From NCBI GenBank assembly GCA_951406725.2, contig OX597819.1:61194001-61258000 (forward strand): DNA of 64,000 nucleotides. Reading direction: 5' to 3'. The notes beneath the pieces are model-generated. The model was not told where the DNA came from, made no database searches, and saw nothing but the letters and a program-made list of their open reading frames with translations. Shown here one piece after another: positions 21,460 to 57,778 of this stretch. Numbering within the stretch: position 1 is the stretch's first letter; every line of letters begins with the position of its first letter. Made by a program: the position numbers and the translations under genes. The DNA is from Octopus vulgaris (taxonomy: Eukaryota).

Positions 21460-21609
21460 CATAAAATAGGCGCAGGAGTGGTTCATAGGTGCAGGAGTGG
21501 ATGTTTGGTAAGTAGTTTGCTTCCCAATCACATGGTTCCGGGTTCAGTCCCACTGTGTAGCACCTTGGGCAAGTGTCTTCTGCTATAGCCTCGGGCCCAT
21601 CAAATCCTT

Positions 21610-23643
21610 GTGAGTGTTTTTGGTAGACGGAAACTGAAAGAAGCCTGTCGTACACACAATCAACATATGCACAAACAAAAACACAAACCAAACTTCAGCA
21701 AAAAAGAATGGGCTGAGTTGAACAAATTAAAACTAGATAAAACAATAACAATCAAAGAGGCCGATAAAGGGAGTGCTGTTGTCTTAATGGATACGACATT
21801 TTACATAACTTTGGTACTTTCTATGCTGGAAGACACAACATACTATGAAAAGGCACAAAACTACAGTCAACAAAAAATAATGAGGGAACTAAAATCCATA
21901 TTAAACCCATACAAAGCAGGGCTCACCGACAAAGAATATGATTATATGACCAATTTCACAAGTAAAACTAGCCAATTCTACGGTATACCTAAGATCCACA
22001 AAAGTGAAAAAATAAGCAACGCATGCAAGATAGCTACAGACAAAATAATTAAAGTCCCTAATCCTAATGACCTCAAATTGAGACCCATAATAGCAGGTCC
22101 CGCATGCGAAACCCACCGCCTCAGTAACTTTTTAGACACCCTGTTAAAACCACTCCTCAAACATGTCAAAAGCTATATAAGGGACGACTTAGATATGCTC
22201 AATCACCTACCGAATACTATAAACAAAAACACCATACTGGTATCCTTCGATGTAGTCAACCTCTACTCCAATATCCCCCACAACCTAGGACTAGAGGCAA
22301 TCCAATTCTGGCTAGAGAATCACGCCAACGAACTACCACACCGCATCAAAAAAGAATTTGTGATAGAAGGGGTTAAATTCATCCTGGAAAATAACTTCTT
22401 CGCCTTCAATGACAACTTCTACCGACAAAAATCGGGGACTGCGATGGGTACACGAATGGCCCCCTCCTTTGCCAACCTAGTCATAGGATACCTAGAGATC
22501 AGTCTGTATCGTAAGGTTCTAGAAAGATATGGCAGCCCTTTCTCCATCTACATAGAAAACAACTGGAAGAGATATCTAGATGACTGTTTCATCCTTTGGC
22601 ATAAAAATATAGAAAAACTCATAGAATTCCAGAAAATTTTAAACGGACTGGACGTAAACATCCAATTCACGATGGAATATAGCCAACAACAACTCCCCTT
22701 CCTCGATATCCTCATTAAGAAAGCTAATAATATAATAGAAACAGACATATACTATAAGCCTACAGACTCTAAGCAATATCTTCCATTCAATTCATGCCAC
22801 CCCAGACACACCAGGATGAATATCCCCTTCAATCTAGCAAAAAGGATATGCACTATAGTCTCTAACGCAAACACCAGAGACACACGACTACAAGAACTAA
22901 AAGATACCCTAATCACCAGGAACTATCCACCTTCACTTATTGACAAGTGCATTCAACGTGCCCTTCAACTTAACATCAAGGAACTGAGACATCCCAAATC
23001 AAAGAAAAACTTACAACCAAAAGCCTTACCATACATCTCCACACACAACCCTCTCAATAACGAAGCCTTCGACACCATCCTCCACAACATACCCCTCCTA
23101 AAAAAATACCACAGAATGAACACAATCCTCCAAACACACACGATCATAAAAAGCAAAAGACAGCCTAGATCCATGAAAAGTCTCCTTACACAAGCCCGAA
23201 TTCACTCTTCAACACAGAAGCCGACAGTAAAAAAATGTGGAAGACCCAATTGCGGGATATGCGACTATCTAATCGAGGGTTCTGAGTTCTCCTTCAAACA
23301 GGGACAACGGTTTACAGTGAAAAGCAACTTCACATGTGCTTCGGAGAACCTAATATACTCACTAACCTGCTCCGGGTGTCAAGAGCAGTACATAGGCCAA
23401 ACAAAAAATGGTTTGCGTAAACGAATGGCCCTGCACAGATCCCAGATAAAAATTCCCCAAAACAGAAAAATAGCTTTTAGCCAACACATAGATACTTGCG
23501 CCAACAAAAAAACACCAAACTTCAGAATTTTCCCCCTCTACCAATGTAGGGACGATACAACCTCGAGACAAAGAATAAGTAAAGAAAATCTCTTTATTAC
23601 AAAATACAAGCCACTTCTTAACGGGTCTACGACAAACAATTAA
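21610..23643 (+). CDS. Penelope-like element (Neptune type) reverse transcriptase + GIY-YIG endonuclease, 5' truncated
   Basis: 677-aa open frame with IKEADKGSAVV, LRPII, SFDVVNLYSNIP, GTAMGTRMAP, RYLDD, LPFLD, YYKPT, Cys linker CGRPNCGIC and NLIYSLTC...YIGQT. The first ~14 codons are SINE-derived, so there is no native start. Confidence 0.95.
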   Translation: MSVFGRRKLKEACRTHNQHMHKQKHKPNFSKKEWAELNKLKLDKTITIKEADKGSAVVLMDTTFYITLVLSMLEDTTYYEKAQNYSQQKIMRELKSILNPYKAGLTDKEYDYMTNFTSKTSQFYGIPKIHKSEKISNACKIATDKIIKVPNPNDLKLRPIIAGPACETHRLSNFLDTLLKPLLKHVKSYIRDDLDMLNHLPNTINKNTILVSFDVVNLYSNIPHNLGLEAIQFWLENHANELPHRIKKEFVIEGVKFILENNFFAFNDNFYRQKSGTAMGTRMAPSFANLVIGYLEISLYRKVLERYGSPFSIYIENNWKRYLDDCFILWHKNIEKLIEFQKILNGLDVNIQFTMEYSQQQLPFLDILIKKANNIIETDIYYKPTDSKQYLPFNSCHPRHTRMNIPFNLAKRICTIVSNANTRDTRLQELKDTLITRNYPPSLIDKCIQRALQLNIKELRHPKSKKNLQPKALPYISTHNPLNNEAFDTILHNIPLLKKYHRMNTILQTHTIIKSKRQPRSMKSLLTQARIHSSTQKPTVKKCGRPNCGICDYLIEGSEFSFKQGQRFTVKSNFTCASENLIYSLTCSGCQEQYIGQTKNGLRKRMALHRSQIKIPQNRKIAFSQHIDTCANKKTPNFRIFPLYQCRDDTTSRQRISKENLFITKYKPLLNGSTTNN

Positions 23644-24422
23644 TATACCTCAACTTTAGAATAAAAGAAAAAAATATATATACACACACAAATACTACAC
23701 TCCATAGAATCCATTACTAATCAGCCCCTTCATAGCTATATTTACACCCATTCATATTCTCCCTTCTCTGTTTTTTTCTTCTTCTTCTTCTTCATCATCA
23801 TCGTTATCATCATCATCGGCGTCATCATCATCGCCACCATCATCACCACCATCTTCTCCTTCTCCTCCTTCTTCTTCTTCTTCTTCTTCTTCATCATCAT
23901 CGTTATCATCATCATCGTCGTCATAATCATCACCACCATCACCATCATCTTCTCCTTCTCCTTCTCCTTCTTCTTCTTCTTCTCCACCCCCTACCCCTTA
24001 AGTTTGTCACTAATGTTTTTTAGTATAACACCTACGCTAATTCTATAAACAAGCCTGTCAATATAAATATTCTCCTGAATTGAACTGAGACTGCCAGCCG
24101 CCACTGACCATTCAAAATACGACCATCAGGACACTCCCAGATTCTCCCACCCCCTTTCCTCACCAGCCTTCCCTCTACTACCCTACCAAGAACTCACAAC
24201 TACCTCGAACACACAAGTGCAAACAAGGGAGTCAGAGAAAGGCAGAATGCCACTTAAATCTGAACACTACTATAGAAATATTCTTTTAAAAAAACTTTTC
24301 TTCTAATTTTTCTAAATTTAATTATTTAATCGTTACAGTTGAAAAGGTCTCAAAATGACCGAAACCGGTACTGAAATGTTCACTATAAAATTATTTTAGC
24401 ATTTTCTATTTTTTACTTGTTT

Positions 24423-35524: not shown

Positions 35525-35941
35525 CTTATTTCTTTATTGCCCACAAGTGGCAAACATAGAGGGAACAAACAAGGACAGACAAAGGGATTAAGTCGATTAC
35601 ATCGACCTCAGTGCGTAACTGGTACTTAATTTATCGACTCCGAAAGGATGAAAGGCAAAGTCGACCTCGGCGGAATTTGAACTCAGAACGTGGCGGCAGA
35701 TGAAATACCTATTACTTTACTACCCACAAGGGGCTAAACACAGAGAGGACAAACAAGGACAGAAAAAGTGATTAAGTCGATTATATCGACCCCAGTGCGT
35801 AACTGGTACTTAATTTATCAACCTCGAAAGGATGAAAAGCAAAGTCGACCTCGGCGGAATTTGAACTCAGAACGTGGCGGCAGACGAAATACCGCTGAGC
35901 ATTTCGCCCGGCGTGCTAACGGTTCTGCCAGCTCGCCGCCT
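35525..35941 (-). mobile_element. Head-to-tail SINE B dimer; a partial + strand copy lies at 35305-35460
   Basis: Two copies joined at gaaatacc|tatt; ccttaattct flanks both ends. Confidence 0.88.
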
Positions 35942-42012: not shown

Positions 42013-42309
42013 CATTATTTACATTATTTACATTTGACGGATATTTGTCCTCATCTTGTTTGTTGTTAACACAACGTTTCGACTGATATACCCTCCAGCC
42101 TTCTTAGGTGTTTTGGGGAAATTTCGAACCTGGGTTCTCATTCCTAAATTTTAGTGTCACTCATAGTTTACATATAGGAATGAGAACCCCGGTTCGAAAT
42201 TTCCCCAAGACATCTGATGAAAGCTGGCGGGTATATCAGCCGAAACGTTGTGTTAACAACAAACAAGAGGAGGACAAATATCCGTCGAATGTAAATAATG
42301 TAAATAATG
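42013..42309. mobile_element. Palindromic pLTR-like insert (two ~135-bp inverted arms, each with an HHR motif)
   Basis: Arms 42013-42146 and 42175-42309; (gtaaataat)n tails point outward. Confidence 0.85.
42209..42254 (+). ncRNA. Minimal type I hammerhead ribozyme motif
   Basis: GACAT CTGATGA A aGCTG-gcgggtatat-CAGCc GAAA CG TT GTGTT. Confidence 0.75.
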
Positions 42310-44572: not shown

Positions 44573-44644
44573 GGTCTCATGATGTAATGGTTAGCATTCT
44601 GGACTCTGAATCCATCGATACGAGTTCAAGTCTCGGTGAGACCT
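44573..44644 (+). tRNA. tRNA-Gln(CTG), possibly a pseudogene
   Basis: GGTCTCA TG ATGT AATGGTTA GCAT T CTGGA CTCTGAA TCCAT CGAT ACGAG TTCAAGT CTCGG TGAGACC T. Perfect acceptor stem; one mismatch each in the anticodon and T stems. Confidence 0.88.
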
Positions 44645-50707: not shown

Positions 50708-51584
50708 TATCAGTAACAATAAAGGGTGAAATTAATTAATTTGGAATAATTATCAATTACACCAAGTAGATTTCGGCATGTAAAAGCCTCATTCGTGGAA
50801 AATTTAAGTAATACTAAGCAATTAAGGGTTTAGCAACGAATTGCCTCACCAACACACCGAATTTAGAAATAGCAGTCAAAGAGATATAGCTATTCCTTCT
50901 ACTAAAAGGGAGATCTCAAGGAATAGCTATATCTCTTTGACTGCTATTTCTAAATTCGGTGTGTTGGTGAGGCAATTCGTTGCTAAACCCTTAATTGCTT
51001 AGTATTACTTAATTTTCCACGAATGAGGCTTTTACATGCCGAAATCTACTTGGTGTAATTGATAATTATTCCAAATTAATTAATTTCACCCTTTATTGTT
51101 ACTGATAACCATATTTTATCCCAGTAAATGACCACAGCATCTTGTCTTGGCTACACGCGGGTGGAAGGGGGCTGGTGACACAAACTTTCATTCACACTTT
51201 GAATTTCGTGGTACTGGTCATGCTTTGGCTCGCTCTGACACTGAGTTGAGATGATGCCTTCTAGTATCTCAAAATTTAATATACAATTATTCAAAATTGT
51301 AGTATCCTACGCCGATGAGAAAAGAAGTTTGGGTAAGGTAGAATTTTCTAATTCTTATGCTTTCCTAAAACTTGATTTCGAAACGTACGTCCGTAGGTAA
51401 CTTAAAATTGTATGATAGATTGCCGTCATTTCATTCTTTCTTACCTGTCTGTGTTTGCCTTTCAAGTGCTGTGTTTTTACTGAGATCTCCCTTTTAGTAG
51501 AAGGAATAGCTATATCTCTTTGACTGCTATTTCTAAATTCGGTGTGTTGGTGAGGCAATTCGTTGCTAAACCCTTAATTGCTTA

Positions 51585-51587
<3 letters not shown>
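50708..51587 (+). mobile_element. Retrozyme/pLTR-like element: inverted arm + ~1.15 tandem copies of a 583-nt unit
   Basis: 50708-50898 is the reverse complement of 50918-51107 (one 1-nt indel seen); 50918-51005 recurs from 51501; (TA)n on both sides. Confidence 0.88.
51306..51397 (+). ncRNA. Type I hammerhead ribozyme, U4C variant with 61-nt stem II
   Basis: CCTACG CCGATGA GAAA...TTTC GAAA CGTACG TC CGTAGG. Confidence 0.85.
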
Positions 51588-51619
<32 letters not shown>

Positions 51620-51914: not shown

Positions 51915-52270
51915 AAGTGGCACTCCGTCGGTTACAACGAGGAGGGTTCCAGTTAATCCGAACAACCGGAACAAGCAGTCGTGAAATTAACGTGCAAGTG
52001 GTTGAGCACTGTACAGACGCTCGTACCCTTAATGTAGTTCTCGGGGTGATTCAGCTTGATACAGAATATGACAAGGCTGGACGTTTTGAATTACAGGTAC
52101 AACTAGTTTTAGTCAGTTGGTTAGACGGGAGCAATGTGAAATAAAGTGTCTTGCTCAAGTATACAGGCGCCGCCTGTGAAATAAAGTGTCTTGCTCAAGT
52201 ATTCTGGCGCCGCCAGAAATCGAACTCACAATCATGTGATCGTCAAGCGAATACCCAAACCGCTCAGCCG
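51915..52270 (-). mobile_element. tRNA-derived SINE, family D
   Basis: Minus-strand head ggctgagcggtttgg...gagttcgatttc and cttgagcaagacacttt core (duplicated 36 bp); related fragments at ~57225-57380 and 63590-63660. Confidence 0.7.
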
Positions 52271-57554: not shown

Positions 57555-57778
57555 CACACATATATACATCCATACATACACACACACTCATATATATATA
57601 CATACATATATATACAAAATGTGATCTCGTGTGTACCGTTGGCGATTTTTTTCCTCTGTCTTCCCTTCTCTGGATCTTTCCTTCTCCTATGTTTCCGACG
57701 AAGAGCTCCGCCCGAAACGTTAAACCCTCCTTCTTTCCTGAGCGTCCAATAATACTATATTTGTTCCACGTCCTCATA
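57555..57778 (+). mobile_element. HHR-bearing ~200-bp repeat (motif 57691-57725, mutated)
   Basis: GTTT CCGACGA A GAGC-TCC-GCCC GAAA CG TT AAAC. Confidence 0.75.

Follow-up and report, generated by a model that had tools for sequence, protein, structure and literature searches.

The hammerhead motif at positions 51306-51397 of the window (the whole 64,000-nt stretch of Octopus vulgaris DNA that we analysed) very probably belongs to a non-LTR retrozyme. We propose that this is a non-autonomous, non-coding element with a 583-589-nt unit and a type I hammerhead, which would be copied by the enzyme of a Penelope-like element. The model as a whole, in which such a retrozyme is copied by a Penelope enzyme and carries a slow-cutting ribozyme with C rather than U at core position 4 (C4, the U4C change), is in our judgment likely.

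The original prediction for this region, a hammerhead with a U4C core, a 61-nt stem II and a palindromic stem III, was confirmed with every element in its place. The perfect 6-bp stem I and the GUC site, with the cut after 51391, can be read directly from the sequence, and the three helices of the interrupted rod described for stem II were located at 51319/51376, 51325/51368 and 51340/51350. The motif is a type I hammerhead, with an open stem I, a helix II and GUC as the NUH site. On the 5´ strand of stem I, A51309 is changed to G in 29/106 copies, with the pair kept as G.U. The canonical CUGANGA...GAAA core is not present in the window copy, which has C at position 4, but is found in the 455 relatives with U at this position (U4). 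The hammerhead pattern had one match in the window vs none in 100 shuffles, and the 104-nt ribozyme region gave a folding z of -2.9. Rfam reported no hammerhead at 51306-51397, neither at the gathering score nor at E <= 10, and the expectation that length-limited searches would miss the motif thus holds for Rfam. The features of the ribozyme and of the insertion that carries it are collected in Table 1.

Table 1. Features of the insertion, the repeat unit and the ribozyme (window coordinates).
Feature	Position	Strand	Basis
Whole retrozyme insertion, 880 bp: inverted 5´ piece and forward arm of 1.15 units, one hammerhead	50708-51588	+	
Inverted arm, unit positions ~+90 to +299 from the cut site, ending at the second preferred 3´ end	50708-50918	-	
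One 583-bp unit, non-coding	50918-51500	+	
Second-unit start, same sequence as 50918-51005, reaching the first preferred 3´ end (+197)	51501-51588	+	
Terminal segment spanning both preferred 3´ ends, 72-75% identical to the sister-family end	50930-51107	+	
Stem I	51306-51311 with 51392-51397	+	six Watson-Crick pairs
Catalytic core C3-A9, CCGAUGA, U4C at 51313	51312-51318	+	sequence
Stem II arm, 61 nt: 4-bp helix, 2x2 purine internal loop, interrupted rod	51319-51379	+	
Inner stem II helix, 4 bp	51319-22 with 51376-79	+	
GAAA	51380-51383	+	
Perfect palindrome ACGTACGT, stem III by dimer pairing	51383-51390	+	
C17, predicted cut directly 3´	51391	+	
Stem I 3´ strand, U1.7 at 51398, short stem I extension	51392-51402	+	

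The insertion sits between (TA)n-rich microsatellite tracts, and the repetition of 50918-51005 at 51501-51588 defines the 583-bp unit. This unit is low in G+C and, folded as a circle, is 68% paired (z = -6.3 vs 40 shuffles). The ORF with RT and GIY-YIG domains of an autonomous Penelope-like element is absent from the unit as well as from the tandem arrays. The assignment of the hammerhead to a Penelope host was therefore correct with respect to the context, which is of Penelope type, but not with respect to the host itself, a non-coding tandem unit (a retrozyme) with no long ORF in any of its frames. The terminal segment at 50930-51107 is a candidate recognition region for the reverse transcriptase. 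A possible intron with GT at 51398 and CAG at 51122-51124 found no support, as no splice joint was detected in four runs (searched as contigs, kind unconfirmed). In these runs, four organism labels had contigs with C at 51313, making up ~41, 13, 5 and 21% of contig depth, which is a weak measure.

Across the genome assembly (2.8 Gb, 227 contigs), a loose hammerhead pattern gave 905 matches, a few of them from other families, compared to a single match for the reversed control. Genome-wide we counted ~840 ribozyme cores, 387 with C4 and 455 with U4, and 99 of the first 100 cores in each of the two lists are members of the family. The subtype of the window, defined by an exact 23-mer, comprises 41 C4 and 66 U4 copies. 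Two U4 copies, L016 and L094, do not otherwise differ from the window copy in the 106-nt ribozyme region. Throughout the family the units are 583-589 bp long and arranged in tandem, in head-to-tail arrays of up to six or more with no ORF between units. For 96 loci, 133/152 3´ ends fall in two clusters at ~+197 and ~+299 from the cut site (+190-209 in 84/152 and +280-309 in 49/152), (TA)n then follows 124/152 of the 3´ ends, and both orientations are present in 48/96 loci. Microsatellite targets, inverted 5´ pieces and two internal 3´ ends are described as features of Penelope elements (PMC8557442, PMC11167929). The octopus copies insert like Penelope elements, into (TA)n targets, with inverted 5´ pieces and with two fixed 3´ ends. 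The (TA)n context would mask target-site duplications. Under our explanation, a Penelope-type reverse transcriptase and endonuclease would nick (TA)n and start at ~+197 or +299, and the enzyme would usually read through the ribozyme, giving 5´-truncated, often inverted tandem insertions.

Penelope-type ends and inversions, together with the Penelope-like ORF fragments that adjoin several copies, might also be expected if the unit were a mere terminal repeat of a 5´-truncated autonomous Penelope-like element. We consider this very unlikely, since the head-to-tail, ORF-free arrays of up to six or more units largely refute it, and the neighboring ORF fragments differ in type and orientation and are separated from the copies by TA repeats, as expected from a shared target. 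Given the intervening TA repeats and their differing types, these fragments were rejected as the autonomous partner of the retrozyme. A 73%-identical relative was also rejected as a partner because it represents another non-coding family, and no autonomous element with a shared unit was found among the fetched loci, for which the best 40 candidates were scored per search. The sister non-coding family (L111-L135; 2543 candidates) has a terminal segment that is 72-75% identical, a U3-A8 hammerhead and a different palindrome.

The element resembles the metazoan non-LTR retrozymes described in PMC7229834 and 10.64898/2026.07.22.740005 in its tandem arrays of non-coding units that each carry a type I hammerhead, its low G+C, the strongly self-paired predicted circle, the dimer-dependent stem III and the presence of Penelope-like elements in the genome. 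The unit is longer than the 150-450 bp given in PMC7229834 but within the 51-972 bp range of 10.64898/2026.07.22.740005. Compared to the retrozymes in these texts, the octopus element stands out by the 61-nt stem II arm, by the U4C core in nearly half of the copies, and by an insertion anatomy that itself points to the Penelope enzyme. With the Penelope-like hammerheads of PMC4209133 and of the anole Poseidon element (PMC11167929), it shares the type I topology, palindromic stem III and dimer model, as well as the AT-rich targets, inverted 5´ pieces and two internal 3´ ends of the elements themselves. Unlike these elements as they are described there, the octopus unit has no ORF and has a full 6-bp stem I and a 4-bp inner stem II, and the 3´ ends in the octopus family are spaced by ~100 nt rather than by 30-40.

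We also noted variation among individual arrays. At L095, L096, L139 and L152, several subfamily c insertions have a common 5´ end near +44 to +46. At L095 (C1, 50.43 Mb) and L097 (C1, 133.66 Mb), variants recur in every third unit; the pattern is weaker in L143, and other arrays have no such period. L097, with fewer than five units, is too short to have arisen by simply duplicating three units, and a trimer circle may have been copied by a rolling-circle mechanism, with gene conversion as an alternative. A search for a source array with the L095 pattern found the variant at the L095 locus only.

Secondary structure calculations for single and paired copies gave different results. At its lowest energy, a single copy is predicted to form an inactive rod that pairs the core with the palindrome, and C4 adds a C-G pair to this rod (pair probability 0.63 vs 0.12; 0.7 kcal/mol). 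As a monomer hairpin, stem III is unfavorable (+2.4 kcal/mol), while the computed value for the palindrome duplex is -9.8, and the best fold of two copies is a double hammerhead (-61.6 vs -54.8 kcal/mol for two monomers). The suggestion that the ribozyme depends on dimerization is supported by these computed values, in that the palindrome duplex is predicted to be favored and the best two-copy fold is the double hammerhead, which fits the dimer model presented in PMC4209133 and PMC7229834. With only one ribozyme, the window copy would be unable to release a monomer alone. We propose that tandem arrays are transcribed and that adjacent ribozymes may pair via the ACGUACGU palindrome into a double hammerhead, with a slow cut after GUC; the products would be monomers, multimers and probably circles.

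With 387 C4 vs 455 U4 cores, C4 is not the family consensus, a point that the original prediction had marked for checking, and it is neither the consensus nor a private lesion. In a midpoint-rooted tree of 106 distinct copies, U4 is found on all of the deep, more diverged branches. The tree needs four C4/U4 changes, consistent with one gain and reversions, and includes a five-copy U4 revertant branch that was amplified inside the C4 lineage. A single origin of C4 is possible. The C4 state is derived, and it characterizes the lineage that includes the youngest subfamilies. Within this lineage, subfamily a, to which the window copy belongs, is followed by the later d, b and c. Divergence between loci is 1.6% for a, 1.1% for b and 1.2% for c vs 2.2% and 4.9% in two U4 groups; the groups comprise 5 to 44 copies each, chosen in part for their similarity to the window. 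We suggest that U4C was born in a source copy and then carried along successive subfamilies, and that it lowers cutting, probably without abolishing it.

The C at position 4 forms a CpG, and the C4 lineage includes a few U4 copies, as might be seen if C4 were a mutation artefact, generated by A-to-I editing or representing a CpG that decays to U4. Such an origin is highly improbable given that the deeper, more diverged branches are all U4 and that the changes on inner branches are without strand bias (A>G 23, T>C 23), which also leaves A-to-I editing unsupported as the source of the changes.

The stem II arm was examined using 30 distinct copies picked from 77. Stem pairing was retained in 94% of cells vs 28-53% in slid controls, and three pairs had changes on both sides, all within the stem II arm; because the 30 rows are related, this covariation reflects few events. 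An A-U to G-C swap at pair 10.3-11.3 occurred in two separate lineages, one with U4 and one inside the C4 lineage. The outer rod is looser, with extra mismatches in the youngest C4 subfamilies b and c. U51398 and A51375 are unchanged in 106/106 copies, though most positions are nearly invariant, which makes this weak evidence for a contact. U1.7 and the last loop A are candidates for the bases through which loop 1 would contact loop 2. Within stem II, we would expect a tertiary contact only at the inner 4 bp and the internal loop next to them, with this internal loop standing in for loop 2 in our structural model. Accepting this model, the inner 4 bp and internal loop would take the roles of an ordinary helix II and loop 2, and the rest of the arm would be an extension that is tolerated and contributes to the rod fold.

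The idea that Penelope hammerheads usually have a short stem II was not upheld by PMC4209133, where minimal hammerheads with a larger-than-usual helix II of 7-8 bp are described; the 61-nt arm is still far longer. The combination of a 6-bp helix I and a 4-bp helix II corresponds to the canonical metazoan geometry given in the same paper. A special role for the long arm, such as the tertiary contacts proposed for it, also found no backing, as the outer half is variable and decaying and stem II arms of 45-75 nt are present in other motifs of the genome. The latter are hammerhead-like, older and diverged, and have a palindromic stem III (L071, L075 and L101-L105), and further such long-arm motifs are found at L146:3493, L097:369 and L041:2176. 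As for protein binding, protein assistance has been published for one Penelope hammerhead (PMC11167929). Type I hammerheads of fungal and plant RNA viruses with a "long" helix II (PMC13725137) similarly exceed the canonical helix II, but there helix II has a length of 6-8 bp and the monomer already forms a stable helix III.

The same core change was detected in a second, 360-bp tandem family (L158-L169 and L193-L213; for example C1:161876657-161884584), which has a short-stem hammerhead and no similarity to the 583-bp unit longer than 10-11 nt. This family has 1343 cores, ~1195 with C4 and 148 with U4. Among the U4 cores, all 100 listed are U3U4, and the canonical CUGAUGA (CTGATGA) had no match among the 1343. 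C4 arrays have up to 23 ribozymes, with some loci mutually identical. The inverted, TA-targeted pattern is seen here too, with 3´ ends at +176 and +222. For the C4 loci of this family, 3/37 5´ ends are at +2, and genome-wide we found clear ends at +2 in 4/15 matches, at +1 in 1/4 and at -3 in 0/2.

To ask whether the C4 ribozyme cuts in vivo, we examined the 5´ ends of the 583-bp family. For 23 loci chosen by their 3´ part, 9/40 5´ ends fell within +1 to +12, compared to zero within -12 to -1, and 22/40 segments ran across the cut site. Exact patterns searched genome-wide gave true ends at +1 in 8/11 matches (5 of the 8 with C4-lineage alleles), +2 in 5/12, -1 in 1/3, -2 in 0/5 and -3 in 6/9, that is 13 at +1/+2 vs 7 at -1 to -3 (p ~0.02); by eye, four of the six -3 ends seem to have a G or GT in common with the inverted arm. 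For the first 100 listed of 176 late-C4 segments, 19 lacked an intact junction, corresponding to 8 ends at +1 to +12 and 11 continuing point mutants, and there were no ends at -12 to -1 (p ~0.008). 5´ ends are also frequent along the whole of +1 to +190. The enrichment of 5´ ends just after the cut site, C4 copies included, is real but modest and hints at slow cleavage in vivo, with enzyme stalling at the helix, which could give a similar step, as a fair rival. On balance, slow residual cleavage by C4 copies is the somewhat likelier case. For a viroid, the U4C variant is reported to cut far more slowly in vitro but well enough to sustain infectivity (PMC3088659, citing Ambros and Flores 1998).

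An alternative is that C4 leaves the ribozyme with little or no activity and that cutting is dispensable, with the C4 lineage spreading via well-transcribed source arrays; the template would then be uncut multimeric RNA, and the stems would persist for folding or protein binding. Consistent with this, hammerhead cleavage is reported to be unnecessary for insertion in vitro, where catalytic mutants had no effect (PMC11167929), and cleavage was seen in 1/9 dimers in a preprint (10.64898/2026.07.22.740005). The crossing of the site by more than half of the 40 segments, the preference of C4 for the inactive rod and the decay of the outer arm in late C4 subfamilies point in the same direction. However, the other core positions are kept in 105-106/106 copies (though the patterns used to pick copies require part of the core), and the compensatory pair swap in the inner stem II postdates C4. 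The ends located exactly at the cut site in C4-lineage copies, as well as the +2 ends in C4 loci of the 360-bp family, also speak for residual cutting, and we regard a dead C4 ribozyme as unlikely.

Compatible with our explanation, but adding a selective cause, is the possibility that slower cutting was positively selected, such that longer or circular templates survive and new insertions with at least two ribozymes serve as sources. C4 rose in two unrelated families, and in the 360-bp family only C3C4 or U3U4 was seen, without the canonical intermediate. C4 loci are also more often tandem (17/42 vs 11/76 for U4, p = 0.003, for C1, C2 and the first 151.6 Mb of C3, with one row from another family left out of the U4 list). 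The breakdown by subfamily, however, gave 13/16 tandem loci for subfamily c vs 1/9, 3/14 and 0/3 for the other three C4 subfamilies, which resemble U4 (5/51 and 6/25). As subfamily c accounts for 13 of the 17 tandem C4 loci, C4 alone does not explain the long arrays, and the idea that it lengthens arrays by itself was ruled out. In addition, the five-copy U4 revertant branch was amplified within the C4 lineage, array length is confounded by age, and two families are only two events. Positive selection for slower cutting is thus possible but doubtful, and we are equally tentative about the broader proposal that retrozymes are selected for a detuned ribozyme, with U4 changing to C independently in two unrelated families. 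If this were true, detuning would leave multimeric or circular templates for the Penelope enzyme, giving tandem arrays that seed the next round, and the long stem II and the C4-palindrome pairing would hold single copies off until a partner ribozyme or Penelope protein binds.

Returning to the retrozyme with a slow-cutting ribozyme, the viroid variant (PMC3088659) has the same core change but is described there as rare in an RNA pathogen, whereas here each of the two unrelated families has hundreds of copies with it in the genome. In the main texts searched, we came across no account of U4C spreading along a retroelement lineage, nor of a retroelement with a 61-nt stem II arm. Weak activity has been proposed as useful for keeping viral templates uncut (PMC13725137), and the function of hammerheads in Penelope-like elements has been called unclear (PMC8557442). 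Our data suggest that the elements can spread despite slow cutting and may benefit from it. The octopus families constitute a natural experiment, with dated subfamilies that differ at one core base, a revertant branch and a second family with the same change, and with hundreds of insertions whose ends record the RNA templates. They also provide direct insertion-site evidence for the use of Penelope machinery by retrozymes, and in this one genome more than 1,500 cores would escape searches that demand CUGANGA or a short stem II.

Several other features were detected in the window. An ORF at 21589-23640 (+) is Penelope-like, with RVT_1 and a weak GIY-YIG match, and by its motifs is presumably Neptune-like. 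Its 3´ region contains a minimal hammerhead with a U3-A8 core at 24339-24365 (+). Minimal hammerhead-like motifs were also found at 57695-57718 (+), 63176-63153 (-), 50340-50317 (-), 21344-21321 (-) and 42214-42246 (+); four of these five look like members of a single abundant family, and core position 4 is C in the copy at 57695. Finally, a tRNA-like sequence is located at 44573-44644 (+; Rfam RF00005, 53 bits), and tandem repeats are present at 570-1180 (203 bp period), 35527-35893 (184 bp) and 52135-52214 (40 bp).
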